Counted from the stretch's first letter, positions 5,048-44,795 are shown. The stretch is 64,000 nucleotides of DNA from Flavobacteriia bacterium (GCA_015999765.1 JAECQR010000010.1:3048-67047); one strand, 5' to 3'. The notes: generated by a model not told the origin, from the sequence alone. Numbers and translations are program-made.

Positions 5048-5920
5048 TCAGAACAGCAGTGGAGCGCCTTCAGGAATAATCATGAGCGGCATCTGAACCT
5101 TACGGGCCAGCGTTGCACTGTGGCTTCCCGTTGTGACTCTTTCGAAAAAACTTTTGCGCTCATGTCCCATCACCACCAGATCCACGTCCTTATATCTCAG
5201 TACCCCGAGACCGGTATTGACTCCAACCACTTCAATGGGCAGATAAGTGACTTTTCCGTCGATATTCTTGATAAACTCCTCTTTTTTGTGGAGATAGGCT
5301 TTTTCATCAATCAGGTCGGAAAATCCGGTGACATAGCTGACCATCAGTTCGGCATCGAAATATTTCGCAAACCTCGCGACGGACCGGGCGGTTTTTTGAT
5401 CCCGCCTGTTGAGGTCTGTAGCGAACGCAATTTTCTCCATCTTTCTGTACCGGTGATGATGGGGAACGATCAGAAGCGGATATTTGCTTTCATTAATCAT
5501 TTTAAGACTGCTGCTTCCAAACAGAAGTCTGTTCAGTTTTCCGCTACCGGTCATACCCATCACCACCAGCATCGCCTTGGTTTCTTTTGCCTTGTCATCA
5601 ATAAGGCTCACCAGATCCTTTTGTTCCGCAGACCAGGTAATAGCAGGCTTGAAAAGGCCGGGATTATCACCCTGTATAATGTTTTCTTTCGTTTCTAAAG
5701 CTTTTGCCAGTTTCTTCAATGCTTTTTCTGCATCTTTCTTTACATCAGGAAGTTCCAGTAATGTCCATGGAACTTCGCTTATTATGGGGCTTTCAACAGG
5801 ATCATGATACGCATGACACAGGTGCAGATCAGCTTTCAGCCCAATAGCTAGGTTGAGCGCGAAACGTGCAGCGTTTTTGGAGGGATTCGAGAAATCGGTA
5901 GGGACAATAACAGTTCTCAT
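5048..5920 (-). CDS. Universal stress protein (tandem UspA domains)
   Basis: MRTVIVPTDFS, VVMGMTGSG...LFGSS, IAFATD, LVVMGH; start moved to ATG 5920. Confidence 0.9.
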   Translation of the reverse strand: MRTVIVPTDFSNPSKNAARFALNLAIGLKADLHLCHAYHDPVESPIISEVPWTLLELPDVKKDAEKALKKLAKALETKENIIQGDNPGLFKPAITWSAEQKDLVSLIDDKAKETKAMLVVMGMTGSGKLNRLLFGSSSLKMINESKYPLLIVPHHHRYRKMEKIAFATDLNRRDQKTARSVARFAKYFDAELMVSYVTGFSDLIDEKAYLHKKEEFIKNIDGKVTYLPIEVVGVNTGLGVLRYKDVDLVVMGHERKSFFERVTTGSHSATLARKVQMPLMIIPEGAPLLF

Positions 5921-6237
5921 AACAGGTGTTTTTAGTAATTCAGTAACTCCCAACCTCGTGTCTTGCCGCAGATTTGAACAGCGCAGAGAAAAGAACAGAA
6001 AGACAAGAGATTGCCTTCATCATCATTTATACAGTAAAGTTACGAAAATTTATGGGGTTAACCTGCTGATAGAAACTATTTATCAGTTGATTTACAGGCG
6101 AATATCAACGGTGCTTCCGTTTCACCGTAAATATTGACAGATGATTTGTGATTAAAGTTTTTAAAAAAAATATATCATGGTATTTACATTTATCGTAATA
6201 TTGCAATATTAAAACATGATCAAAAAATTTAACCGTT

Positions 6238-6570
6238 ATGGGACTTACCAAAACAGAGCATTTTACCGATGAACAGAATGAAATGGCGGTACTGCTGAAA
6301 GCCATGGCACATCCTGCCAGGATTGCCATTATTGAATATCTGCTCACCACCAACACCTGCATCTGCAATGATATTGTGGAGGTATTGCCTCTGGCGCAAC
6401 CTACGGTTTCGCAACACCTTAGGGAACTGAAAAATGCCGGAATTATTCAGGGAAGCATCGATGGCAAAGCCATTAATTACTGCATCAATAAGGAAACGAT
6501 TCAAAAGTTCGACTCCTTCATCAACCATATTTTCCATAAAATGGATTCCCTCGAAAACAACAGATGTTAA
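6238..6570 (+). CDS. arsR: ArsR/SmtB family transcriptional repressor
   Basis: KAMAHPARIAI, TCICND, LAQPTVSQHLRELK; first gene of the ars cluster. Confidence 0.92.
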   Translation: MGLTKTEHFTDEQNEMAVLLKAMAHPARIAIIEYLLTTNTCICNDIVEVLPLAQPTVSQHLRELKNAGIIQGSIDGKAINYCINKETIQKFDSFINHIFHKMDSLENNRC

Positions 6571-6596
6571 AATAATAACCTTCAAAACCATTCATT

Positions 6597-7061
6597 ATGA
6601 GACTTTCAGAAATCAAGAACATTCTTACCAACCTGCAGGAACTGCATTTTGTATTAGAAAACGGCGAACAGGTTCCAGACCATTTCCACGTGACCGAAGT
6701 GGGGCAGATCAATAAAAAATTTATCGACTGTGGCGGTGTGATCCGCGACGAAAAAGCCATCAACTTCCAGCTTTGGTTTTCTACCGATAACGACCACCGC
6801 CTGGAAGCTGAGAAACTCAAAAAGATCATTGCCCTTTCCGAAGATAAACTCGGCCTGGAGGACGTAGAGATCGAAGTGGAATACCAGCAGTCGACCATCG
6901 GGAAATTCGGTTTGGATTTTAATGGAAAAGAGTTTGTGCTTACGACTAAAACCACGGCCTGTCTGGCTCAGGATGCGTGTGGAATTCCTCAGGAAAAACC
7001 GAGAGTAAAACTTTCAGAACTTCAATCCGCCAGCTGTGCTCCGGGCTCCGGCTGCTGCTAG
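6597..7061 (+). CDS. DUF6428 family protein with Cys-rich C-terminus
   Basis: VPDHFHVTEVG...FIDCGG...EIEVEYQ...TACLAQDACG...SCAPGSGCC; typical second gene of flavobacterial ars operons. Confidence 0.8.
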   Translation: MRLSEIKNILTNLQELHFVLENGEQVPDHFHVTEVGQINKKFIDCGGVIRDEKAINFQLWFSTDNDHRLEAEKLKKIIALSEDKLGLEDVEIEVEYQQSTIGKFGLDFNGKEFVLTTKTTACLAQDACGIPQEKPRVKLSELQSASCAPGSGCC

Positions 7062-20857: not shown

Positions 20858-21597
20858 ATGCCCAGTAAAAACCAACAGATCCGGGAACTCAGTTTTCACA
20901 TTGAACTTCTGGAGAATTATTTCAGAAATACAATTATTCCGCAGCTCTTTATTGATGGTACGCTGCGGCTTCAGAAATTTTCTCTTCCCGCGATGAAGCA
21001 GTTCAGTCTTGCAGATTCAGATATCGGCAGGCCGATTGAAGAGATTAAGGATAATTTCCGGTTTCCTTCCATCATTGATAATATTAAGAAGGTAACCGAT
21101 ACCGGTGAGATACTCGAAAAAGAAATTCAGACCTTGGACCGGCGGTGGTATCAGATGAATATTTTTCCTTATATCCTCCTTCAGGCCAAGAAGACAGAGG
21201 GGGTAATTGTTACTTTTGTGGAAATTACTGCGATGATCGAAGAGCTAAGGGTGCAGAAGAAACTGGTTGCTGACTACGAAATTCTGATACGATTTGTCAC
21301 GACATTAAAAATCCCCTAACCAATCTCGTATTGGCTGTAGGGCTGCTTAAAAAAACTAAACCTGTCGAAACCAAAAAATATAATTCTCTGCTTGAAACTG
21401 TCGATAATGCCTTATGTAAAATGCATGCGCTGATTAATGATCTTGCCGCTGAAAGAAAAAACTGCTATGATATATTCGGAGGGGAAGAACTTCTCAGTAT
21501 TGAAAATATACTGGAAGATGTCCACAGTATTCTCAGCGATAATATAACTGAGACCGGGGCTATGATTCAAACTAATATTAATGTTCGGGAGAATTGA
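20858..21597 (+). pseudogene. PAS-domain sensor histidine kinase, frameshifted and lacking the HATPase domain
   Basis: PAS fragment (20858-21319). A 1-nt frameshift near 21285 puts D-T-I-C-H-D-I-K-N-P-L (H-box) in the frame of ORF 21331-21597, which stops before any N/G boxes. Confidence 0.8.
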
Positions 21598-22179
21598 AAG
21601 CACGATGATGGCGAATATCGACAGAAATTCGCTTTGCCAGTTTTGGAATGATTCAAACCAAAGCCGCGAGTCTGTAAGTTACTCGCCGACCTGCTGTATT
21701 GGTTTCGCTTCGAGTCTGTTCTGAGTATTGGCGTCCTGAAGACTTCCGTAAACATGAAGTACAAAAGACGCAGCAGCCAGCAGAAAAAGCGAGATGGTAA
21801 GCGAGTTTTTGTACAGTTTGAGCCATATACCGCCTTTTCTGAGCGGCCAGGGCGCTCCTTTACGTTCGGCAGAGGGCGTGCAGTCTACTTCATTGGGTTT
21901 TTCAATGTCCTTAGATCGGAAGAACCTTTCTGCCGCATAAAAAATCGTAAACCACACCAATAAACCCATCTGTAAAAACTCGCTTTCCCAGTTTTCGAAA
22001 GTGGCTTCAATGAAATGTCCGGAATGTAAGTATTGGTAAAAATTTACGGTTTCTCCGCCCCATTCCTGAAGGTCTTTATTATATTCCAGCAGTCCGAAAT
22101 AAATCTGTCCGCCTAAGCCCAGTAAAAACAAAAGCAGAAATACAGCAGAAAGACTGTTGTTATAAAGCCATTTTTTCAT
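21592..22179 (-). pseudogene. DUF6766 family membrane protein, nonsense-interrupted and 3'-truncated
   Basis: FENWESEFLQ motif; in-frame TAA at 21681-21679, after which LTDSRLWFESFQNWQSEFLSIFAIIVLSI continues to 21592, where it meets the kinase remnant. Confidence 0.75.
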
Positions 22180-22219: not shown

Positions 22220-22693
22220 TCATTTTTGAAGTTCCAGCGTGTTTTGCCGCTGTACTTTCACTTTAGAACTTTCGTTCCGGTATACTTCTTTGCGCAGATT
22301 GGTGCTCGAAAAACGGTGATGCCGTTCATTGAAATAAAGAACGATATTCTGTTCTTCACAGAATTTTCGGCCTGTAAAGTTTTTGTCCCTGTATTCCACG
22401 CCTATAATTCTTACATCAACGGAATACAGTTTCAAAATGTCTTCCAGATCCTGCTCTGTTGCGTAGGGAATAATTTCATCCACATATTTGCAGGCTTTAA
22501 GCTGAATATATCTTTCAACCACGGTTTGCACAGGTTTGTTTTTTTCCGGCCTGTCAATTGTGGGATCCGTCTGTAAACCTACAATAAGGTGATCGCACTG
22601 CGCTTTTGCTTCCGCAAGCATGCGGATATGTCCTGCATGCAGCAGATCAAAACAACTGAAGGTAATTCCGGTAATTTTTTTATTGGTATCCAT
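22220..22693 (-). CDS. Glycerol-3-phosphate cytidylyltransferase-like (TagD family)
   Basis: FSCFDLLHAGH (HxGH), LIVGLQTDP, YVDEIIPY, RHHRFSST. Confidence 0.88.
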   Translation of the reverse strand: MDTNKKITGITFSCFDLLHAGHIRMLAEAKAQCDHLIVGLQTDPTIDRPEKNKPVQTVVERYIQLKACKYVDEIIPYATEQDLEDILKLYSVDVRIIGVEYRDKNFTGRKFCEEQNIVLYFNERHHRFSSTNLRKEVYRNESSKVKVQRQNTLELQK

Positions 22694-22702
22694 AATAGTT
22701 GG

Positions 22703-23827
22703 TTAAATGTTTAATTCCTCTATTTCCTCAATGAATTCAGAGTGTTTATAAATTGAAAGAACGTATGCAGGATCGGGTATCCGGTTTTTTTCTTCGTCGA
22801 GATCAAAAATTCCGCACCGGCTGTAAACGCAGAGGTTGTCCCAATCGGGCCTGTCCGTAACAGGATAGATGCAGATGCCGTGAAAATCGACTCCTTCATG
22901 TGCCGCGATAATGCATTCTGCAGCAACTTCATCCAGCCATTCAGCACGGCTGTCTTCGAAATGCCCGGTTTCGGAAAGAAACATGGGTTTTTTATACCGC
23001 TGATATGCGTTGAGCAAAAGCTGATGTAAAGGTATTCTCTCGTTAGCATGATCCGGCCAGCAAAGGCTTTCGGCATCAGCTTTCCACTGGCAGTTCCAGT
23101 AATAATTGAACCCTAGAATCTCAAGATAACTTTCGTCACCTCCGAGTTCCGGACATCTTCTTCCGGCAATAATATCCATGGCTTCGAACTGGTATTCGTT
23201 GCGGATAGAAATTTCATCGGAATCGGGACCGTGTACTTTAACCAGCGGTTCCACGAGTACGATTTTACACTCGGGATCTTCCTGTTTCATTGCACGGATT
23301 CCCTGAAGTGCTGCTTTGCAAAGGTGGTATTTGATATCCCAGCCGCTGTTCACCGCAAAAGGAACAGTGCCTCTGTCGTCGCCTGAAAGCCAGGACAGAA
23401 AACTGATCTCGTTGATCGGAACTACGTATAGTATTTCGCTGCTGTGTTTCCTGAAAAACCTTACAAAAGCCCGGCAGAGTTTCTCGAACCGGTCAGCAAA
23501 ATGCGGATGGGTAGGGAAGAGCCCGTCAGGATACCCGAAATGGATAAGGTCCCAAATCTGCTGAATGCCAGTTTCTCGGGCCGCACGGATTCGGTTAAGC
23601 ACCTCGGAAAAATCATATTCTCCTTCTGTTTTCTCCACTTCGCTCCAGCATATTCCTTCGCGGACGGTATAGATGTCGAGCGAAGTCAGCAGTCTGTAAT
23701 CTCCGTGTACACGGAGATCGTGCTGGGTTTCTTTCAGGAGGTTTACTCTTTGGCCATGGCGGTTGATGTGATCAGCACATTCAAAACCACCCATCAGATA
23801 ACTTTTAAAGAACGGTGAGCTTTTCAT
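22703..23827 (-). CDS. Glycoside hydrolase, GH1-like clan GH-A TIM barrel
   Basis: MGGFECAD, WDLIHFGYP, PINEISF (acid/base), FLSETG (nucleophile); start moved to MKSSPFF 23827. Confidence 0.75.
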   Translation of the reverse strand: MKSSPFFKSYLMGGFECADHINRHGQRVNLLKETQHDLRVHGDYRLLTSLDIYTVREGICWSEVEKTEGEYDFSEVLNRIRAARETGIQQIWDLIHFGYPDGLFPTHPHFADRFEKLCRAFVRFFRKHSSEILYVVPINEISFLSWLSGDDRGTVPFAVNSGWDIKYHLCKAALQGIRAMKQEDPECKIVLVEPLVKVHGPDSDEISIRNEYQFEAMDIIAGRRCPELGGDESYLEILGFNYYWNCQWKADAESLCWPDHANERIPLHQLLLNAYQRYKKPMFLSETGHFEDSRAEWLDEVAAECIIAAHEGVDFHGICIYPVTDRPDWDNLCVYSRCGIFDLDEEKNRIPDPAYVLSIYKHSEFIEEIEELNI

Positions 23828-24950
23828 GATCTTCGCATTTTTCGGTCTCCAGAGTGGCAAATAAATCCAGTGCGTTTTTAAAAGCCTGGTCCATATTGAA
23901 ATATTTGTAATTGGCGAGTCTGCCTACAAAATAAATATCCTTCAGCTGATCTGCATGCTTTTTATATTCTTTGTAGATGCGTTGGTTTTTCTCGTTTGGT
24001 ACAGGGTAATACGGTTCGCCTTCATCCACCGTATATTCTTTCACGATGCTTGTTTTGGGTGATTTCTGATTTCCGAAATGTTTGTATTCGACAATTCTGG
24101 TGAAATCCACATCCTGTCCGGGATAGTTAACCACAGAGTTTTCCTGGAAATATTCCTGATCCAGATGTTCGGTGACAAAATTAATGGAGCGGTATTCCAG
24201 TTTTTCCGGCATCCGGTCTTTAAACTCAAAGAAACGGTCAACCGGTCCTGTATAGAATAATTTCCCGAAATCTTCCAGCTGATCTTTGATATCGAAATAA
24301 TCGGTGTTCAGCAATACCGTGATATTGGGATGGTCGAGCATTTTCTCAAACATTTGGGTATATCCACCCTTTGGCAATGCCTGATATCGGTCTGAAAAAT
24401 AACGGTCGTCATGATTGTACCGCACAGGAATTCTCTCCAGAACTGAGGCGTGAAGCTCTTCAGGAAATTTATCCCACTGTTTTTTGGTGTAGTGCTTAAA
24501 CATTTTTTCGTACAGCACGGGACCTACTCGGTTAAGCACGGCTTCTTCACCGTTTTTGGCTCTTTCAAAAGGAATTCGGTTTTCAGCAAGCCAGGTCTGC
24601 ATTTCTTCTTCGGTTTCAAGGTTCTGGTCAAACAGAATATTTACGGTTCGGATATTCACCGGAATTGGGACGGTTTTGTCGTCAACGCGGGCGATAACCC
24701 GGTGTTCCCAGGGATACCATTCAGAGAAACGGTTCACGTATTTCCATACTTCTTCGTCATTGGTATGAAAAAGATGAGCGCCATATTTTGACACCAGAAT
24801 TCCGTTTTCGTCATATTCATCATAACAGTTACCGGCGATATGGTCTCTTTTTTCGATAACCAAAACTTTTTTTCCGGCAGAAGCGTAACGTTCAGCCAGT
24901 GTTGCGCCGGAAATTCCGGCACCTATAATGAGGATATCTATCTTTTTCAT
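23805..24950 (-). CDS. glf: UDP-galactopyranose mutase
   Basis: IIGAGISG, RDHIAGNCYD, KYGAHLFHT, TKKQW, EPYYPV, GRLANYKYFNMDQ. Confidence 0.96.
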   Translation of the reverse strand: MKKIDILIIGAGISGATLAERYASAGKKVLVIEKRDHIAGNCYDEYDENGILVSKYGAHLFHTNDEEVWKYVNRFSEWYPWEHRVIARVDDKTVPIPVNIRTVNILFDQNLETEEEMQTWLAENRIPFERAKNGEEAVLNRVGPVLYEKMFKHYTKKQWDKFPEELHASVLERIPVRYNHDDRYFSDRYQALPKGGYTQMFEKMLDHPNITVLLNTDYFDIKDQLEDFGKLFYTGPVDRFFEFKDRMPEKLEYRSINFVTEHLDQEYFQENSVVNYPGQDVDFTRIVEYKHFGNQKSPKTSIVKEYTVDEGEPYYPVPNEKNQRIYKEYKKHADQLKDIYFVGRLANYKYFNMDQAFKNALDLFATLETEKCEDHEKLTVL

Positions 24951-26032
24951 GCGATGGTTTTTTGAATGATAGCGTCCATATGGGCAGCAGTATTGTCCCA
25001 GGATGTCTTTTCGAGAATTTCAGTATAAGCTTTCTTAAAATTCTTTGCAGGACTTGTAATTGCCTTTTGGAAGTCGGTTTCATTCTCCACCAGCATAATG
25101 CAGTGACTGTAGTCGCGGACTACATCTTTTATCTTTGTGGAAATAATCGGTTTCATGGCCGACATGTATTCCAGGGTCTTGGTGGGACTGATGAAACGGG
25201 TGGAATCATTCAGTGCAAAGGGCATCATTGCCATATCAAAGCAGTGCAGGTAATCGGGGAGCTCGTCATACGATTTCATCCCCAGATAATGGATGTTATC
25301 AGCTTTTGGGAGATCCTCTTCGGAAATTTTGCACAGCGGTCCGATCATTACAAATGAAGCATCAGGAGTCCTTTCTGCGGTCCGTTTTAAAAGCTCAAGA
25401 TCAATTCTTTCGTCGATCACTCCGTAATAACCGACGATAGGTGCAGGAATATTGCGCATATCAGCCGGTTTGGTAATTTTTCGGGGTGTAGCAAAATGTT
25501 CTACGTCTACGGAACTCGGGAAGCAGAATACATTATGATGTTTTTTTGCTTTGGATTCGTAAAGTGATTTTCCTCCGGTATAAACCATATCCGCAAATGA
25601 CAGAAGAGTGTTTTCCTGTTCCAGCAGATGAGGTGATGCTCCTTTAAAAAGGGTGAGTTCATCCATGCAGTCGTAAACAACGGTTTCAAAATCAAGCTCA
25701 TTAAGCACTTCCACAAACGCCGGCGAGTAAAACCAACCTACGGTAAAAGAGGTATTGTTTAATTTTTTGCGCAGATAGGGACCGATGTCTTTCATATCAG
25801 AAACTGGCGGCTGGCATACGTGAATATTCGGATTGATCTCTTTAATCTGAAAGGGGCCTGATCCGTTGAGCCGGGTCTGTACTGGCTCTTCAACTACCAA
25901 AATGCGGTAATCGCGGGATAGGCGGGTAATCAAATGTTGCGGTCTCTGGAACACGAAGTCCCAACGGAGATGACAAAAGACGATCATGTCGTAATGGTGC
26001 GATCCTTCGTTTTGTGACGGTACGTTTTTCAT
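24947..26032 (-). CDS. Glycosyltransferase (GT-B, GT4-like)
   Basis: HLRWDFVFQRPQHL, VYDCMDEL, GYYGVIDERID, ISPTKTLEYM; start moved to 26032; ATGA overlap with glf. Confidence 0.88.
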   Translation of the reverse strand: MKNVPSQNEGSHHYDMIVFCHLRWDFVFQRPQHLITRLSRDYRILVVEEPVQTRLNGSGPFQIKEINPNIHVCQPPVSDMKDIGPYLRKKLNNTSFTVGWFYSPAFVEVLNELDFETVVYDCMDELTLFKGASPHLLEQENTLLSFADMVYTGGKSLYESKAKKHHNVFCFPSSVDVEHFATPRKITKPADMRNIPAPIVGYYGVIDERIDLELLKRTAERTPDASFVMIGPLCKISEEDLPKADNIHYLGMKSYDELPDYLHCFDMAMMPFALNDSTRFISPTKTLEYMSAMKPIISTKIKDVVRDYSHCIMLVENETDFQKAITSPAKNFKKAYTEILEKTSWDNTAAHMDAIIQKTIA

Positions 26033-26105
26033 AATAGTATATTTTAATGTTGAGTAGTCGGAACCGATGTCCCTGTGAATGGTCTGTTCTCGCAAAAAAA
26101 TATAA

Positions 26106-26126
26106 TATCACTAGAGCGTAGTGATA
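26106..26126. promoter_or_regulatory. Perfect 8-bp inverted repeat in the GT leader
   Basis: TATCACTA-GAGCG-TAGTGATA. Confidence 0.4.
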
Positions 26127-26202
26127 AAAGATATTAGATGGTAAAACCGGAGAGGCATTTAAAAGTAAAAATCCTGCCGCTATCTAATTGCCGAATAATC
26201 AA

Positions 26203-26216
26203 CAAAAAAGGTGCCA
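26203..26216 (-). promoter_or_regulatory. Sigma-54-like -24/-12 promoter for the GT-glf operon
   Basis: Minus strand TGGCACCTTTTTTG (TGGCAC-N5-TTG). Confidence 0.6.
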
Positions 26217-26360
26217 ATAAATATTTGATATAACGAAAAAAGGATATGACTTCTTAAGTCCTAATAAATGCGCTTTTATGTTGTTTATTTATAATTCGCA
26301 ATGATAGTTTTACACCTGCAGAGAGTTTACAGGTGTAAGTATTTTTAATAAATCGGGAAT

Positions 26361-26591
26361 CTAATTTTCTAAACCCGATTGGTTAGTATTTTCCTTCTTC
26401 GTCTGCTGTGGCGGCATAGCCGTTGAGGCGTTGATGCTGTCGCCCATAATCGAATCCCTTTCGCGGTTCTGAATCAGGTCACGTTCTGTCTCCGCATAGT
26501 CGGCGGGGGCGGTATTCTGGGGTTTATCGTTTTGTGAGCATGCAGAGAGAAAGACGATTCCCAGTGCTGCCATAACTGTTGGATATTTCAT
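26361..26591 (-). CDS. Small lipoprotein
   Basis: MKYPTVMAALGIVFLSAC lipobox; polar low-complexity tail. Confidence 0.75.
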   Translation of the reverse strand: MKYPTVMAALGIVFLSACSQNDKPQNTAPADYAETERDLIQNRERDSIMGDSINASTAMPPQQTKKENTNQSGLEN

Positions 26592-27473: not shown

Positions 27474-28295
27474 TTAAGAATTTCTTCCGCCCCGGCTTCC
27501 GAAACCGCCTCTACGGCCGGATCCGCCACGTGCACTTCTTCCGTCGGAAGTAAACCTGCCCTGGCTGTCCCTCATTTGGTTAGTGTTTCCTCTTCCGCCA
27601 CCGCGGGAAGAACCACCACCCTGGCTTCCGCCTCTTAAAGAACTTCCTCCAGAGCGACCACTCTGTGAACCTCTGGAAGAACCTCCGCCGGAGCGTGATC
27701 TTCCGCTGCCAGTTGTGTACTGATTTCCGAAAAACGGATGTCCTTCGCGGGCACCTCTTCTGTCGCTTCCGCCACGGTTACTTCCCTGTGAGCCTCCTGA
27801 AGAATTTCCCCGGCCTCCTCTTGAAGATCCGCTGCCTGAGCCTGAAGATCTTGAAGAACCGCCCTGGTTTCCTCCTCTGGAAGAACCACCTCTTGAACCT
27901 GCCTGAGAACCTCCTCTAGAGCCGCTGCGTGAAGAACCTCCTCTGGAGCCTGACGAGCTGAATCTGCCCTGACTGTCCCGTCTTTGGTTACCGGTATTTC
28001 TTCTACCGTCGTCGTCATCATCATCGTCATCCTCTTCGTCATCATAATCGTCGTCGTTATCGTCATCATCGTCATCGTCATAATCATCATAGAATTCCTG
28101 ATAACTGTCTTCGTAGTCATCATCATAGTCTTCGTCGGCCTGGGCATCTGCATAACCGTCTTCGTAACCGTCTTCGTACGCCTGTTGGAAGATTTCTTCC
28201 AAGTCGAAATCTTCTTGCTGGTTTCTGCCTCTTGAGTTTCCTCTGCCGGAGGAAGAATTTGATCTTCCTGAGCCGGAATTTTGTCTTGTAGCCAT
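27474..28295 (-). CDS. Intrinsically disordered protein with Asp-rich block and Gly/Ser/Arg-rich block
   Basis: 273 aa; long D/E/Y tract then SSRGG repeats; RDSQGRF twice; GHPFFGNQY. Confidence 0.8.
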   Translation of the reverse strand: MATRQNSGSGRSNSSSGRGNSRGRNQQEDFDLEEIFQQAYEDGYEDGYADAQADEDYDDDYEDSYQEFYDDYDDDDDDDNDDDYDDEEDDDDDDDDGRRNTGNQRRDSQGRFSSSGSRGGSSRSGSRGGSQAGSRGGSSRGGNQGGSSRSSGSGSGSSRGGRGNSSGGSQGSNRGGSDRRGAREGHPFFGNQYTTGSGRSRSGGGSSRGSQSGRSGGSSLRGGSQGGGSSRGGGRGNTNQMRDSQGRFTSDGRSARGGSGRRGGFGSRGGRNS

Positions 28296-28685: not shown

Positions 28686-29447
28686 TTAGTCAGGAATTTT
28701 AACACTTGACCAGTTTTCTCCGCTTTTAATCCGCCAGACCTGCATTTCTGAGATTCCGAACTGTTTTGCAATCTGTTTGGATGGTTTGTTCCGCCTCAAC
28801 AGCAGTTTGATGTGGATCACCTGGGTGGACGTGAGCTTCATTCCGTTTGCACGGGGTTTCGGATTGTATTTGCGCCATTTCTTTTCCTCAATAACCTTTG
28901 GGTTTTTGCTTTGATGGAGCGTATTTTCCTCCTGACTCATCCATCTTAGGTTGGTCACCGTATTGTCGAGCTTATTGTAATTAAGGTGCCCAACAATGGT
29001 CTGTTCCGGTTTTGGTGGCGGCAGAAAACAGGTGGCGACCAGCCGGTGAACCATAAAATGATGGTTAACAGTTCGTTTTTTCAGATTGCGGGCCAGTTTC
29101 TTACTCAGCTGCGCTTTCTTTTTTTCGATGTGATTTGTAGTAACTTCAATGCTTGCAGGAGTGCTGTGGTGCTGCTTTTTCAGTCTCCTGAGTTTATACA
29201 GTTCAGAGATTTCGGTCTTTAGTTCATCAAACAGGATCTGGTCTTTTTCATCTCTGGGTTTATAGAGTTTCAGCCGGATTACTTTGAAGCCTTCCGTAAG
29301 TGATCCGTTCAGAATGCGGCCATCAGAAACTTTATTAAAACTTCTGAAATTTCCAAGGTTAGAGATTTCAAAACGGGTCTTGTTGGTGAACTCAAAATCA
29401 AATTCTACCGCTTTCCACTGTTCTTTTAAAATTTTAGATTTAATCAT
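28686..29447 (-). CDS. NUMOD4 + HNH endonuclease-like protein with C-terminal HTH
   Basis: WKAV...FEISNLGNFRS (NUMOD4); VHRLVATCF...VGHLNYNKLDN..TNLRWMSQEEN (HNH_3-like); IAKQFGISEMQVWRIKSGENW. Confidence 0.8.
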   Translation of the reverse strand: MIKSKILKEQWKAVEFDFEFTNKTRFEISNLGNFRSFNKVSDGRILNGSLTEGFKVIRLKLYKPRDEKDQILFDELKTEISELYKLRRLKKQHHSTPASIEVTTNHIEKKKAQLSKKLARNLKKRTVNHHFMVHRLVATCFLPPPKPEQTIVGHLNYNKLDNTVTNLRWMSQEENTLHQSKNPKVIEEKKWRKYNPKPRANGMKLTSTQVIHIKLLLRRNKPSKQIAKQFGISEMQVWRIKSGENWSSVKIPD

Positions 29448-31402: not shown

Positions 31403-31484
31403 TGCCCGGAACAGGACTCGAACCTGCAAGCTTGTGGGCACCCGCACCTGAAACGAGCGTGTCTACCAATTTCACCATCCGGGC
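31403..31484 (-). tRNA. tRNA-Leu (CAG), CCA not encoded
   Basis: GCCCGGATGGTGAAATTGGTAGACACG-CTCGT-TT-CAG-GT-GCGGG...GGTTCGAGTCC-TGT-TCCGGGCA; long variable arm; TATATTTG promoter at 31501-31494. Confidence 0.93.
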
Positions 31485-32611: not shown

Positions 32612-32625
32612 TGGCACCGTTATTG
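32612..32625 (+). promoter_or_regulatory. Sigma-54-like -24/-12 promoter
   Basis: TGGCACCGTTATTG, about 50 nt upstream of ATG 32678. Confidence 0.6.
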
Positions 32626-32677: not shown

Positions 32678-33217
32678 ATGGAAAATTCAAATTACAAACC
32701 AGAATTCAGAAACGATTATGTATCAAGAGTATTCAGAACCAGAGAAGAGGCCGACAGTGCTTTCGAGGATCTGCACGGTAGAGGATATTCTAAAGATGAT
32801 GTAAACGTAATGATGTCCGACAGTACACGTGACCGTTATTTTACAAACAGTGATGCAGATTCTGAATTAGGAGATAAAGTAGCTGAAAATGCCGGAAAGG
32901 GATCATTAATCGGTGGTGGAATCGGTGCAGTAGTGGGTGCAGTAGCCGCAATTGGTTCTAATGTTTTATTACCTGGATTAGGTTTGGTAATTGCAGGACC
33001 TTTAGCAGCCGGATTGGCAGGAGCCGGTGCCGGAGCTGCAACAGGAGGACTTGTTGGCGCATTAACCGGAACGGGTGTTCCTGAAGATGAAGCAAGAAGA
33101 TACGAAGACGAAATTAAGAACGGTGGAATCTATATGGGCTACAAACCAAGAAACGAAGAAGATGCCCGCACAACTTATGACAGATGGTATAATGACGATA
33201 CAGAATCAAGACTGTAA
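32678..33217 (+). CDS. General stress protein with glycine-zipper (YflT/YsnF-like)
   Basis: VFRTREEADSAFEDLHGRGY..DDVNVMM; GGGIGAVVGAVAAIG...GPLAAGLAGAG; GVPEDEARRYE. Confidence 0.8.
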   Translation: MENSNYKPEFRNDYVSRVFRTREEADSAFEDLHGRGYSKDDVNVMMSDSTRDRYFTNSDADSELGDKVAENAGKGSLIGGGIGAVVGAVAAIGSNVLLPGLGLVIAGPLAAGLAGAGAGAATGGLVGALTGTGVPEDEARRYEDEIKNGGIYMGYKPRNEEDARTTYDRWYNDDTESRL

Positions 33218-38679: not shown

Positions 38680-39783
38680 TTAAAGCTTTTCGTTTTCCAG
38701 GATTTTCATCACAATATGTTCTTCTTTAGTAAGTCCCGAACTTCCGTCATCGATTTCTATCGCGTCCAGTTCATCCAGATATTTCTTAATCGAACGGTTT
38801 TCATAAAGGTTAATGACTAGCGGATGAACATAATATTTACGGCAGACAGTCGCAGTGTTTCCCAGATTTTCGGCAACCATTTCAAGAGCTTCTTTTACTT
38901 TTGATTTATAACCTGAATCGTTTTCTGCTTCACCGATTTCTTTAAAAGCGATGAGTGCGTTTACGGTGCCAGACCAGGTCCGGAAATCTTTTGCTGTAAA
39001 ATCATCACCGCTGATTTCTTTGATATATTCATTTACCATCCCGGAATCGATTGCATGCCTGCTGCCGTCACTATCGTAATATTGAAAAAGTTCCTTCCCC
39101 GGGATATCTTTGCAGTTCTGTACCGCTTTGGCAAGTTTAGCGTTTTTCAGATCGATATCGTGATAAATTCCTTTTTTTCCCTTGAAGGAAAAATTAATTT
39201 TCTGCCCTTTAATATTGACATGTTTATCTTTTAAAGTCGTTAATCCGAAAGATCCGTAAAGTTTTTCATAAACATTGTTTCCGATACGGATATTGGTTCT
39301 TTCCATAAGACTGACAACAACCGCTAGAACTTTCCTTTTTTCTAAGGTCTTCAGAGAAAGATCCTGTTCCAAATGAAGCCGGATTTGGGGCAGTGCGTAA
39401 CCAAACTGCAGCATTCTGTAAAATTTCGTGTGGTTGCGGAGCGCATTCCAAACAGGATGATATCTGTACTGTTTTCTGCGTTTCGCATCAATACCGGTCG
39501 CCTGAAGATGGCCATTCTGCAAGCCGCAAATCCAGACGTTTTCCCACGCGGGCGGAATCGCAAGTTTATTGATCCGTTGGATTTCATCGTGATCTTTTAT
39601 CTTCTCGCCACCGTTATAATAGACAAATTTCTTACCCCACTTCCGCCGTATAATTCCGTCTGCTTCGCGGTCACTGGTATAAACTAAACTTACCGCTTTA
39701 GCAGATTTTACAGGATCCTTCATGATTTTTACAATCTTCGAGGGACTCAGGGAAATTACAATGTCTGTCTCGGGGTTTTTCAT
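38680..39783 (-). CDS. DNA topoisomerase IB (bacterial/poxvirus type)
   Basis: IPPAWENVWI, QATGIDAKRRKQYRYH, IRIGN, FKGKKG, TAKDFRTW, LGNTATVCRKYYVHP. Confidence 0.95.
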   Translation of the reverse strand: MKNPETDIVISLSPSKIVKIMKDPVKSAKAVSLVYTSDREADGIIRRKWGKKFVYYNGGEKIKDHDEIQRINKLAIPPAWENVWICGLQNGHLQATGIDAKRRKQYRYHPVWNALRNHTKFYRMLQFGYALPQIRLHLEQDLSLKTLEKRKVLAVVVSLMERTNIRIGNNVYEKLYGSFGLTTLKDKHVNIKGQKINFSFKGKKGIYHDIDLKNAKLAKAVQNCKDIPGKELFQYYDSDGSRHAIDSGMVNEYIKEISGDDFTAKDFRTWSGTVNALIAFKEIGEAENDSGYKSKVKEALEMVAENLGNTATVCRKYYVHPLVINLYENRSIKKYLDELDAIEIDDGSSGLTKEEHIVMKILENEKL

Positions 39784-41367: not shown

Positions 41368-43908
41368 TTATTCCGTTTCTAAAAGTGAAATTGCCTTCAG
41401 CATATCAAAACCTTTGCCCAGTACCGGTTTGAAGAGATCGCCTTTTTCCTCAATTCTTGCCAATGCGTTTTCAATGTTGAAATCAGTAGGTTTGAGGCCG
41501 ATTTTCAGTTCGTCCCATTCAATGGGCATGGAAACCGGTGCGCCGTTTTTAGGACGGAGGCTGTATACGCTGGCAAGGGTTTGTCCGCGGCGGTTCTGGA
41601 GGTAATCAAGATAAATTTTTCCTTTGTCCCGTTTCTGTAAGGTGCGTTCGAGCGTTGTGATATCCGGAAGTTCTTTCTGCACCATCTGCATCATGATATG
41701 GGCAAAATTTTTAACCTGTTCAAAAGAATACTGTGCGCCCGCCGGGATATAAATGTGGATTCCTGAACTGCCCGATGTTTTGCAGTATCCTTTCATTTTA
41801 GCTTTATCCATTACCTTTTTCACGGTTTGCGCGGTAAGAATTACGTCTTCAAATGTATTGTTGTCTGAAGGATCGAGATCCAGCACCAGGTAATCCGGTT
41901 TATCGGTTGTTTCTTTCCGGCTTGTCCAGACATTAAGCTCGATGCAGCCCAAATTATTAAGATAAGCAATCGTTGCCTTATCGTTGCAGAGGATGTAATT
42001 GATGTATTTATCGGTGGACTCCGAAAATACTTTCTGGGTTTCAATCCAGTCCGGGATTTCGTCTGAGGCGTCTTTCTGATAGAAGCTCATCCCATCTATT
42101 CCATTAGGAAATCGGTTCATCGACTGAGGCCTGTCTTTCAGGTGAGGCAGAATATATTTTGCAACGCTTTGGTAATAAGCAATCACGTCGCCTTTGGTAA
42201 CCTGATCTTTCGGGAAATAAATTTTATTCTGGTTGGTGAGTTTCACTTCCTGCTTTCCAAATTTCTGCAGCTGCTCATTTTCTCTTTTCATAACTGATTT
42301 TTTTAATGGTACTGGATCAGCGACATATTTTTCTTCATCTTTCTTGAAATTAAGATCTTTGGGATTAAGATCCTCTCTGAGCCTTAGAAAAACAGGATGT
42401 CGGAAGATATGGTCACTTGTAAGTTCCGTGAATTTAATTTCAGCAATAAGTTCAGGTTTGAGCCAGGTCGGTTTATCGTTGGTCTTCGGTGTTGTCGCAA
42501 AAGGTGGCTTATCTGTAATCAGCGGTTCCATTTTTTCGTAGAGCTCTACAAGGCCTTTATCACTGAAGCCGGTACCGGTATGTCCGCAAAAAATAAGTTC
42601 ATCACCATCATAACGGCCGAGAACTAGTGATCCAAATTTCTTGCGGCTGCCTTTGGGAGCGGTAAATCCACAGATAAGGACTTCTTCGGTCTTCTGGCTT
42701 TTAATTTTCAGCCAGTCGCCATTTCGGATGCCGCGGTGGTAAGTGCTGTCTATTTTCTTCGCGATCATGCCTTCCAGTTCCATTTTTTCTACCAGCCGGA
42801 AAAATTTTTCTCCGTTTTCCAGGACATGATCATGGTATTTGATGTATTCGGTTTCTACCAAAGCGTCTTTCAGAAGTTCCTTCCTTTGGATGAGACTAAG
42901 GTTTTCGGTGGAATGACCGTTGAGCCATAAGAGGTCAAAAACCTGATAAATCACGTTTAGGTTGGGATTATCGCCAATCCGCTGCAACCACTGGAAATTC
43001 GGCTTTCCCTGATCATCATACGCAACAAGTTCGCCGTCCAGAATCATTTCGTGTTCCTGAAACTTTAGTGAATTACTCACTTTCTTAAACTTTTCGACAT
43101 ACGACAGCCCGTTTCTGGAATACAGCTGAATATCTTTCCTGAGGTCTGCTACAGCCCGGTAGCCATCCCATTTTATTTCAAAAGCCCAGGCGGGTGAGGT
43201 GAAAGGTTTATCAGTTGTACCCGCGAGCATCGGATTGATGAACCTGGTAAGTTTTTTCTCGCCGCTCAGTGCTGGAGTATAGTTTCGGTAAGCTTTTACA
43301 ACCTCAGGCTTTTTCTCAACTTTTTTTACTTTTTTTTTTGAATTTAAGTAAGCGGTTACTTTCGAATCTTCGGTGGTGTTTTCTTCAGCGTCATAATGGT
43401 CTGTCGCAAATTTATCCCTGTGTTTAATCAGGAGCCAGGGCTCTCCGCTGTCAGAATTTTTAATTTTTACCAGTGCAAATTCGCCTTTCAGTTTTTTACC
43501 GTGAAGGATGAATTTCAGAGAACCTTTATGCAATTCTGCCTGCATAAGCAGATCATCGGTTTTACCTTTCACTTTTTCCAGAGGTTCGTAGGTTCCTTCG
43601 TCCCAGATTTCTACTTCGCCGGCGCCGTAATTTCCCTCAGGTATGCTTCCTTCAAAACTGCGGTAAGCAAAAGGATGGTCTTCAACCATCATCGCCAGGC
43701 GTTTGTCCTCCGGATTTAAGGAAGGTCCTTTCGGGACAGCCCAACTTTTCAGCACGCCATCCATCTCGAGGCGGAAATCATAATGTAACCTGCTGGCGGC
43801 ATGACGCTGAATCACAAATTTCAGTTTTCCTTTGCTGCTCTGGGATTTTCCTTTGGGTTCTGCCGTCTGTTTGAAATCCCGTTTTTCGTTGTATTTCTCT
43901 AATGGCAT
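41368..43908 (-). CDS. ligD: NHEJ DNA ligase D (phosphoesterase-ligase-polymerase)
   Basis: FVIQRHAASRLHYDFRLE (PE); FEIKWDGYR, EGMIAK, WLKIK (ligase); LDLDPS, KTSGSSGIHI, DYLQN (polymerase). Confidence 0.96.
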   Translation of the reverse strand: MPLEKYNEKRDFKQTAEPKGKSQSSKGKLKFVIQRHAASRLHYDFRLEMDGVLKSWAVPKGPSLNPEDKRLAMMVEDHPFAYRSFEGSIPEGNYGAGEVEIWDEGTYEPLEKVKGKTDDLLMQAELHKGSLKFILHGKKLKGEFALVKIKNSDSGEPWLLIKHRDKFATDHYDAEENTTEDSKVTAYLNSKKKVKKVEKKPEVVKAYRNYTPALSGEKKLTRFINPMLAGTTDKPFTSPAWAFEIKWDGYRAVADLRKDIQLYSRNGLSYVEKFKKVSNSLKFQEHEMILDGELVAYDDQGKPNFQWLQRIGDNPNLNVIYQVFDLLWLNGHSTENLSLIQRKELLKDALVETEYIKYHDHVLENGEKFFRLVEKMELEGMIAKKIDSTYHRGIRNGDWLKIKSQKTEEVLICGFTAPKGSRKKFGSLVLGRYDGDELIFCGHTGTGFSDKGLVELYEKMEPLITDKPPFATTPKTNDKPTWLKPELIAEIKFTELTSDHIFRHPVFLRLREDLNPKDLNFKKDEEKYVADPVPLKKSVMKRENEQLQKFGKQEVKLTNQNKIYFPKDQVTKGDVIAYYQSVAKYILPHLKDRPQSMNRFPNGIDGMSFYQKDASDEIPDWIETQKVFSESTDKYINYILCNDKATIAYLNNLGCIELNVWTSRKETTDKPDYLVLDLDPSDNNTFEDVILTAQTVKKVMDKAKMKGYCKTSGSSGIHIYIPAGAQYSFEQVKNFAHIMMQMVQKELPDITTLERTLQKRDKGKIYLDYLQNRRGQTLASVYSLRPKNGAPVSMPIEWDELKIGLKPTDFNIENALARIEEKGDLFKPVLGKGFDMLKAISLLETE
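43330..43339 (-). repeat. A10 homopolymer in the ligD PE-ligase linker
   Basis: Coding strand TCA AAA AAA AAA GTA AAA AAA GTT GAG. Confidence 0.9.
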
Positions 43909-43935
43909 GTTCTGAAAGTTTTATTACGTTATTAT

Positions 43936-44715
43936 TTAGCCGGCCTTGGCTTTTCCGGCTTCCAGACTTGCTTTCAACTGTGCCATTAGGTCGGTTGCTT
44001 TTGCGGAAACCTCCTCTTTGGTCTCGGTTTTTTTCACTTTTCCTTTTGATTTAGCTTTGATGATGGCCATTAAATCATCATTATAAGTGTTTTTATATTT
44101 CGCAGGATCAAATTTTGTCGCGCGCTGTTTGATGAGTGATTCCGCCATTTCCAGTTCGTCAGCTTTGGGATTTTTAGCGCTAGGAATTTTCAGGTCTTCA
44201 AAACTTCTGAGTTCTTCCGGATAGCGCATCCTGTTAACCATGAGGATTTTGTCTTCGTAAGGCCGCACAAGACAAAGAATTTCTTTTTCTCGGAGGATGA
44301 AAGTTCCTATACCTGCCATTTTAGTTTTTAAAAGTGCTTTCAACAGCAGTTTATATGCTTCTTCACCGTTCTTTTGTGGTTCCAGAAAGTAGGAGGACTC
44401 AAAATAAGCACTGTCAATTTCGTGAACGTCTACAAACTGTTTAATGTTCAGGATTTTCGATTTTTCGGGATTTACTTCGTCGAAATCTTCTTTTGTGAGG
44501 ACCACGTAGCTGTCTTCGAGTTTATAACCTTTTACAATATTTTCCCATTTTACTTCCTTTCCGGTTGTCGCATTTACTCTCTTAAAATTAATATTGGAAA
44601 GATCGTCCTTGTCCAGCATGTCGAGATCGAGGTTGCTTTCCCCGGTCGCGGAATAAAGTTTGATGGGAATATTAACGAGCCCGAATCCGATGGCTCCGTT
44701 CCAGATTGCTCTCAT
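43936..44715 (-). CDS. ku: NHEJ Ku protein
   Basis: MRAIWNGAIGFGLVNIPIKLY, IVKGY, YFLEP, DLMAQLKASL; start moved to 44715. Confidence 0.96.
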   Translation of the reverse strand: MRAIWNGAIGFGLVNIPIKLYSATGESNLDLDMLDKDDLSNINFKRVNATTGKEVKWENIVKGYKLEDSYVVLTKEDFDEVNPEKSKILNIKQFVDVHEIDSAYFESSYFLEPQKNGEEAYKLLLKALLKTKMAGIGTFILREKEILCLVRPYEDKILMVNRMRYPEELRSFEDLKIPSAKNPKADELEMAESLIKQRATKFDPAKYKNTYNDDLMAIIKAKSKGKVKKTETKEEVSAKATDLMAQLKASLEAGKAKAG

Positions 44716-44741
44716 AAAAGTTGGTTTTGATTTTAGACCAT

Positions 44742-44755
44742 CAAAAATGCGTCCA
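44742..44755 (-). promoter_or_regulatory. Sigma-54-like motif upstream of ku
   Basis: Minus strand TGGACGCATTTTTG, 27 nt upstream of the ATG. Confidence 0.45.
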
Positions 44756-44795
44756 ATCAAACGCGGAGTTTTTAACTTTGATATCATTAGAACCT

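Follow-up and report, generated by a model that had tools for sequence, protein, structure and literature searches.

A cassette of four co-directional minus-strand genes, at positions 22220-26032 of a 64,000-nucleotide (nt) stretch of DNA from a Flavobacteriia bacterium (GCA_015999765.1 JAECQR010000010.1:3048-67047; the whole stretch is hereafter the window, with positions counted from its first letter), encodes a glycosyltransferase (GT), the UDP-galactopyranose mutase Glf, a glycosidase-like enzyme of clan GH-A (GH, for glycoside hydrolase) and a nucleotidyltransferase (CT). Taken as a whole, the cassette is best explained, at a probability of roughly one half, as a stress-induced operon for cytoplasmic glycosylation dependent on UDP-galactofuranose (UDP-Galf), with a product that would not be exported. 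The four genes, as drawn from a listing of open reading frames (ORFs), are:

24947..26032, minus strand: GT-B glycosyltransferase, TuaH-like/GT4-like (GT), 361 aa; PF13692
23805..24950, minus strand: UDP-galactopyranose mutase (Glf), 381 aa; TIGR00031, PF03275
22703..23827, minus strand: GH1-like clan GH-A (beta/alpha)8 glycosidase or transglycosidase (GH), 374 aa; fold model, catalytic motifs
22220..22693, minus strand: cytidylyl/adenylyltransferase-family enzyme (CT), 157 aa; PF01467

The gene arrangement lies far beyond chance, and the same order was found in dozens of genomes. The comparison covered 80 loci from a genome scan with a 13-sequence GH alignment, two earlier loci and four further ones, in which ORFs were searched with the window proteins and neighbours were clustered. 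Of the 28 loci with a GH of 55% or more identity to that of the window, 24 have GT, Glf and GH together, nearly always in that order and tightly packed, and the four further loci show the same gene order; across the wider set, GT lies beside GH in 40/75 loci and Glf does so in 34/75, with seven loci holding GT and GH without an adjacent Glf. These loci span the Flavobacteriales, Sphingobacteriales, Chitinophagales and Cytophagales, together with a metagenome-assembled genome of Verrucomicrobia. On this comparative basis GT, Glf and GH are the conserved core of the cassette. CT is assigned as a lineage-specific accessory outside that core, an add-on because it was found in 11 related loci only: besides the window, it lies directly 3' of GH in 11/79 related loci where a GH gene could be detected, always immediately after GH, in Kaistella, Chryseobacterium, Halpernia and some Flavobacterium. 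A preliminary description, made from the window alone, had treated all four genes as one unit whose co-occurrence elsewhere was to be surveyed; that expectation stands for GT, Glf and GH, in four Bacteroidota orders and the Verrucomicrobia genome, and holds for CT in a minority of loci only.

Gene fusions join the same partners more closely. The GH family is large (1840 matches in a 90%-identity collection; 1367 representatives at 50% identity), and many members reach 700-1280 aa. Of 150 cluster representatives, at least 21 join GH to a GT homologous to that of the window, further GH representatives are fused to classical GT4 domains in either domain order, and three proteins (P0206, P0217 and P0222) combine GH, GT and a flavoprotein. 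The flavoprotein domain of P0206, from Polaromonas glacialis (WP_232229858), matches eukaryote-type UDP-galactopyranose mutases (4dsg, 6e-47; 3ute, 1e-46), and by this match a non-orthologous mutase is taken to have been recruited to the same GH and GT partners. Because a non-orthologous mutase is fused to the same two partners, there is strong evidence that GH, GT and mutase belong, almost certainly, to one UDP-Galf-dependent pathway.

In three distant loci (L057, at 5076-6926; L031; L073) a GH2 protein without a signal peptide is encoded beside or between the GT and GH genes, and its best solved match is the beta-D-galactofuranosidase 9j6n (3e-28). This neighbour reinforces the predicted galactofuranose (Galf) link, and also hints that the GH1-like enzyme may be something other than a plain degradative galactofuranosidase. 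The earlier proposal that the cassette builds and recycles its product is, on these grounds, one option only, as the GH-GT fusions and the separate GH2 enzyme suggest that GH may process or transglycosylate the product rather than simply degrade it.

Two further patterns were seen among the compared loci. Hymenobacter-type genomes carry GH alone, inside an unrelated lineage-specific synteny block, and the neighbours in that block (cation efflux, amino-acid permease, esterase, M4 protease) were rejected as functional partners on that account. Seven loci of several orders (L007, L024, L025, L048, L074, L085 and L086) have a set of GT2, PIG-L deacetylase, NodS-like methyltransferase and acyl-CoA-dehydrogenase-like genes flanking the cassette or GH, which may constitute a second small-molecule glycoside pathway.

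Assignment of the cassette enzymes

The limits of two genes were revised from the ORF listing, which began both at TTG codons (GT, 24947-26095; GH, 22703-23860). The start of GT was reassigned to ATG 26032 because the exact 361-aa protein is on record and homologues are of 357-363 aa, and that of GH to ATG 23827 (374 aa) because homologues are of 373-380 aa. The junctions reported previously hold: GT and Glf overlap by 4 nt (ATGA) and Glf and GH by 23 nt, while 9 nt separate GH from CT; the GC content of the cassette is that of its flanks. The names of matching database proteins assign the window to Kaistella, near K. soli. None of the four proteins (0/4) has a signal peptide, as had been noted before, or a hydrophobic (membrane) segment. 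All parts of the cassette come from known superfamilies.

Glf scores 377.6 bits against TIGR00031 (equivalog cut-off 303.75) and matches PF03275 at full length (profile positions 1-203/203, 7.5e-79), while its N-terminus matches PF13450 (68.7 bits) and contains the GxGxxG motif of the Rossmann fold that binds flavin adenine dinucleotide (IIGAGISG, residues 7-14); by these profile matches it is a bona fide UDP-galactopyranose mutase. With this assignment, and with GT, Glf and GH co-occurring here and fused elsewhere, the original designation of the locus as a galactofuranose cassette is sustained.

For GH, Pfam (E<=0.01) and NCBIfam searches returned nothing usable; the gathering threshold of the GH1 profile PF00232 was not reached, a faint match to that profile appears in a few GH homologues only, and a sequence search against solved structures gave weak GH1 matches (6kdc, 1.3e-3). 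The AlphaFold2 (AF2) model (pLDDT 87.7) is a (beta/alpha)8 barrel, and Foldseek places it nearest to GH1 beta-glucosidases (E 1e-17, TM 0.74, 16% identity). The signature of clan GH-A is present, with N139-E140 ('NEI') after strand 4 (the strand at 134-136) and E286 in strand 7 (282-288), and in 13-42 diverse homologues, some with as little as 27% identity, N139-E140 and E286-T287-G ('SETG') vary hardly or not at all. The barrel model and the two glutamates, found where they had been placed, agree with the clan GH-A call of the preliminary description. GH1 beta-glycosidases share with the cassette enzyme the fold, the acid/base (N-E after strand 4) and the nucleophile (E in strand 7), whereas the cassette GH is 16% identical to them, about 75 residues shorter, and without a Pfam GH1 match; in addition, the glycone-binding E-W pair of GH1 is not retained, aligning to D328-W329, of which W329 is conserved and the acidic position is G, T or N in distant members. 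GH also lies outside the known beta-D-galactofuranosidase families, with no Pfam match to GH2, GH5 or GH43; the galactofuranosidases listed in a 2025 review all fall in GH2, GH5_13, GH43 subfamilies, GH117-distant and GH159 (PMC12290620).

GT matches PF13692 (Glyco_trans_1_4) at 37.4 bits (cut-off 27), falls under the cut-off of PF00534 (23.3 against 26.4), and scores 81.6 bits against the TuaH model, far under its cut-off of 550, which places it outside TuaH proper. The E-x7-E motif is represented by its second glutamate only (E288 in LEYMSAMKP), the residue eight earlier not being acidic, and no relative of solved structure was found by single sequence or by a 30-sequence family profile. The AF2 model (pLDDT 87.8) has the GT-B fold and matches GT-B enzymes at TM 0.64-0.70, with MshA, sucrose-phosphate synthase, OtsA, BshA and GlgM as top Foldseek matches at 10-14% identity. 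Those top matches are retaining enzymes with small soluble acceptors, and the inverting enzyme GumK was also matched; from the model comparison, a retaining, small-soluble-acceptor character of GT is a weak hint. GT appears, from its profile scores and predicted fold, to belong to an uncharacterised TuaH-like/GT4-like GT-B family, and the GH and GT families both appear uncharacterised, no characterised or solved close relative of either having been found.

CT matches PF01467 at 60.5 bits (cut-off 21) and falls under both equivalog cut-offs, at 73.0 against 181.5 for rfaE_dom_II and 64.7 against 165.4 for TagD (TIGR01518); its best matches in the PDB are ethanolamine-phosphate cytidylyltransferase (3elb, 2.9e-23), TagD (1coz, 4e-14) and 5x9q (3e-6). 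It contains HxGH (FDLLHAGH), KxK and a C-terminal RxxSST (RFSSTNL, resembling RTEGISTT), motifs that are common to the whole superfamily and do not define a substrate. TagD, ethanolamine-phosphate cytidylyltransferase, RfaE domain II and HldC thus share with CT the PF01467 fold family and the HxGH and KxK motifs, whereas CT lies well below every equivalog cut-off and has no glycerophosphotransferase partner at the cassette. The earlier label of CDP-polyol synthase is therefore not established, CT being far below the TagD and RfaE-II cut-offs, nearest among solved proteins to ethanolamine-phosphate cytidylyltransferase, and confined to a minority of loci.

Upstream region and stress-gene neighbourhood

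Two elements lie upstream of the GT start codon:

26202..26216, minus strand: sigma-54-like -24/-12 element, TGGCAC-N5-TTGT, about 170-184 nt upstream of the GT start codon
26043..26050, minus strand: conserved ACATTAAA in the 5' leader, 11-18 nt ahead of the GT ATG in the window, kept among related loci

The sigma-54-like string TGGCACCTTTTTTGT has a perfect -24 element, the right spacing and TTGT at -12. By itself the site is not above chance, with 0.77 matches expected in the window; its support is comparative, as TGGYAY-N5-TTG lies upstream of GT in 6/8 loci of the Kaistella/Chryseobacterium clade (the window, L001, L003, L004, L083 and L084), the background being 0.007 per 330 nt and the flanks diverged. 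L083 holds the canonical TGGCAC-N5-TTGC (TGGCACtttaaTTGC). A chance match was rejected once this conservation in relatives had been found, so that the site reported earlier holds on comparison and not on its own. The only other exact TGGCAC-N5-TTG in the window (TGGCACCGTTATTG, 32612-32625, plus strand) lies 66 nt 5' of a YflT-like gene (32678-33217) in the right orientation, and the two sites together hint at a small sigma-54-type stress regulon.

The ACATTAAA element stands 11-25 nt before the GT start codon in the window and in L001, L003, L004, L007, L083 and L084, the rest of the leader having diverged. The GT 5' leader matched no RNA family in Rfam, and scans for sigma-70-type promoters and terminators were not above shuffled background. 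Further upstream, a perfect 9-nt inverted repeat, TTACACCTG ... CAGGTGTAA with an 11-nt spacer (26310-26338, minus strand), follows closely on the gene for a small lipoprotein (26361-26591), about 95 nt 5' of the sigma-54-like site; an activator might bind there, or the repeat might serve as a terminator that lacks a T-tract.

Around the cassette the window encodes DUF892, YflT-like and DUF1003 proteins, short-chain and zinc dehydrogenases, a DAO-Rieske oxidoreductase, topoisomerase IB, and Ku with LigD, the last of these as follows:

41368-44787, 38680-39783, minus strand: LigD (phosphoesterase, ligase and primase-polymerase) with Ku, plus bacterial topoisomerase IB

DUF892 occurs within 7 kb in 15/75 loci; LigD recurs beside the cassette in L005, L009, L012 and L032, and genes for large catalase, LigD, CinA, YetF and OsmC also recur near related loci. 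The stress link drawn in the preliminary description is upheld by the recurrence nearby of DUF892, large catalase, LigD/Ku, OsmC and YetF, and its statement that export genes are lacking now extends beyond the window: no flippase, polymerase, ABC exporter, priming transferase, glycerophosphotransferase or lipopolysaccharide (LPS) gene was found in the window or among the recurrent neighbours of about 85 related loci.

The proposed pathway and its alternatives

Glf, assigned as the enzyme that converts UDP-galactopyranose (UDP-Galp) to UDP-Galf, would in the proposed pathway supply the donor from which the soluble GT-B enzyme would move the sugar onto a non-exported acceptor. The GH1-like clan GH-A enzyme, with its complete retaining pair, would trim, transglycosylate or later hydrolyse the product, and CT, where it has been added, presumably provides an activated phospho-alcohol or sugar phosphate with which the product is primed or decorated. 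The likely product would be a protective Galf-containing glycoside, a short oligosaccharide or a membrane glycolipid rather than a surface polysaccharide. In the Kaistella/Chryseobacterium clade the operon is probably induced under stress or nutrient limitation, because a stress/dormancy neighbourhood is combined with a conserved sigma-54-type -24/-12 element.

Such a scheme resembles the pathways for compatible solutes and small-molecule glycosides (OtsA, sucrose-phosphate synthase, MshA, BshA), which are soluble and cytoplasmic, have no export step, are stress-associated, often pair a synthase with a dedicated hydrolase, and supply the best structural matches of GT. In contrast to these pathways, the cassette has no phosphatase partner and would use a furanose nucleotide as donor, its synthase and GH are often fused, which is unusual for synthase/hydrolase pairs, and the identity of GT to the enzymes named is 10-14%. 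The literature yielded nothing relevant on this gene combination, on GH1-like galactofuranosidases or on Galf compatible solutes, and the earlier statement that no product of the cassette has been characterised remains correct, with no characterised product or close characterised relative found. The Glf gene mentioned in one fitness study sits in an ordinary flippase-containing polysaccharide cluster.

Several observations weigh against the stress-induced, export-less pathway. Export functions could be encoded elsewhere in the genome, and the 80 compared loci are related by descent, so that their counts overstate independence. The fold matches of GT, at 10-14% identity and including the inverting GumK, tell little about the acceptor, and UDP-Galf is a presumed donor, seven loci having GT and GH without an adjacent Glf. 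The linkages cleaved by clan GH-A enzymes are beta-D or alpha-L, whereas a GT that is retaining like its best structural matches would form alpha-Galf, and its direct product might then be no substrate for GH. On the side of regulation, TGGYAY-N5-TTG is absent upstream in the loci of Flavobacterium and of other orders, the -12 element of the window is TTGT and not the canonical TTGC, the window contains no enhancer-binding protein gene and its scanned proteins include no AAA+ activator, and the sequencing runs that contain the locus are of metagenomic DNA only, with no RNA runs.

A more far-reaching proposal, tentative and on balance doubtful, is that GH founds a new clan GH-A family of cytoplasmic, galactofuranoside-specific hydrolases or transglycosylases which, with a new GT-B family and the mutase, would make a hitherto unknown furanose-based stress protectant. 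The protectant would be a Galf-glycoside or an oligo-galactofuranoside, linear or cyclic, and its pathway would occur widely in Bacteroidota and, as fusions within a single polypeptide, in Pseudomonadota.

To our knowledge galactofuranose is absent from animals and is known almost only from the surface glycans of bacteria, fungi and protozoa, and a conserved, export-less, stress-linked Galf pathway would, if true, suggest that this sugar acts inside the cell or in the membrane. The module would mark a stress/dormancy regulon in Flavobacteriia, whose stress regulation is poorly known, and would define two uncharacterised enzyme families, a GH1-like family of clan GH-A (>1300 clusters at 50% identity) and a GT-B family for which sequence searches find no relative of solved structure. 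The cassette is a good lead for enzyme discovery, with the natural GH+GT and GH+GT+mutase fusions as ready-made constructs for biochemistry.

The main rival, unlikely in our estimate and weakened by the absence of export genes and by the soluble enzymes, is that the cassette forms a branch of envelope-glycan synthesis (LPS O-antigen, capsule, teichoic- or teichuronic-like polymer, or glycoprotein glycan), in which a Galf unit would be built on a cytoplasmic lipid carrier, export would be encoded elsewhere, and GH would act as in exopolysaccharide systems. Glf of known systems usually feeds surface glycans, CT resembles TagD, and the teichuronic acid enzyme TuaH is the best curated match of GT, though far below its cut-off; yet the partners expected of such a route, from the priming transferase and glycerophosphotransferase to flippase, polymerase and ABC exporter, are missing from the window and from the recurrent neighbours alike. 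The glycosidases that process exopolysaccharides are normally periplasmic, whereas all enzymes of the cassette, GH included, are without membrane segments, and Pfam likewise revealed neither a membrane nor an export domain in the GH+GT+mutase fusions. The neighbours are stress genes and not envelope genes, even if the set of GT2, PIG-L, methyltransferase and acyl-CoA-dehydrogenase-like genes beside the cassette in seven loci would suit an envelope role. Among known systems, the galactan system of mycobacteria is one of those closest to the cassette: a mutase there feeds UDP-Galf to cytoplasmic transferases and a clan GH-A galactofuranosidase is found in the same organism, namely the endogenous exo-beta-D-galactofuranosidase GlfH1 (GH5_13), which remodels galactan (PMC12290620). 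In contrast to the cassette, GlfT1 and GlfT2 have the GT-A fold (GT2), and their product is a lipid-linked cell-wall precursor that is exported; the cassette has a GT-B transferase, a GH1-like rather than a GH5_13 enzyme, no linked carrier or export genes, and a context of stress genes.

A second alternative, which we regard as improbable, concerns the direction in which GH works: as a biosynthetic transglycosylase acting in the same direction as GT, it would elongate, branch, cyclise or release an intracellular oligo-galactofuranoside. GH-GT fusions are common, are found with either domain first and draw on two types of GT-B enzyme, a pattern more typical of sequential than of opposing steps, and the retaining catalytic pair is intact, as transglycosylation requires; retaining GH-A enzymes are, however, overwhelmingly hydrolases. 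Degradation could fall to the separate GH2 galactofuranosidase-like enzyme of some loci, but many genomes have GH without an adjacent GT, as in the Hymenobacter block. A precedent is cyclic beta-1,2-glucan synthase (Cgs), in which a GT is fused to GH-like domains that handle the nascent chain by transglycosylation or length control. Cgs shares with the fusions of the cassette family the covalent joining of a GT to GH-like domains, whereas its domains are of unrelated families (GT84, GH94-type), and it acts on a different sugar as a large membrane protein with a periplasmic product.

Salvage of imported Galf-glycosides, in which GH would free Galf, CT would re-activate the sugar phosphate and Glf would run from UDP-Galf to UDP-Galp, is very improbable: the Glf equilibrium does favour the pyranose and CT has a slightly higher score with RfaE-II, a model of sugar-phosphate adenylyltransferases, than with TagD, but no kinase, transporter or SusC/SusD-type uptake gene was found in the cassette or among its recurrent neighbours, CT is missing from most loci, and the linked or fused glycosyltransferase would be left unexplained.

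Further features of the region

Downstream of the cassette lies a gene that is possibly a fifth co-transcribed one:

21679..22179, minus strand: DUF6766 membrane protein, 166 aa; PF20554

It begins 40 nt 3' of CT on the same strand, encodes a protein with a hydrophobic segment, and also adjoins or sits near the cassette in L003 and L056. The protein matches PF20554 (7.4e-48) over profile positions 1-167/221 only, and at 166 aa, against 218-229 aa in those two loci, is C-terminally truncated in the window. Converging on it is a PAS_10 sensor gene (20858-21680, plus strand) with a frameshift before the H-box (HDIKNPL in another frame near 21300), which ends at 21597 without an ATPase domain. The frameshifted sensor gene and the convergent, truncated DUF6766 gene look like the result of a deletion between the two.

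Upstream, a 273-aa low-complexity ORF (27474-28295, minus strand) shares 62 nt with the start of the DUF892 gene. Its product is disordered, with Ser/Gly/Arg-rich arms (repeated DSQGRF) around a poly-Asp/Glu/Tyr core, matched nothing in Pfam, and is possibly a stress protein of hydrophilin-like type. The stress-gene neighbourhood also includes a homing-endonuclease-like protein with HNH_3, NUMOD4 and helix-turn-helix domains (28686-29447, minus strand), and a tRNA gene lies at 31403-31484 on the minus strand (Rfam RF00005, 46.5 bits).

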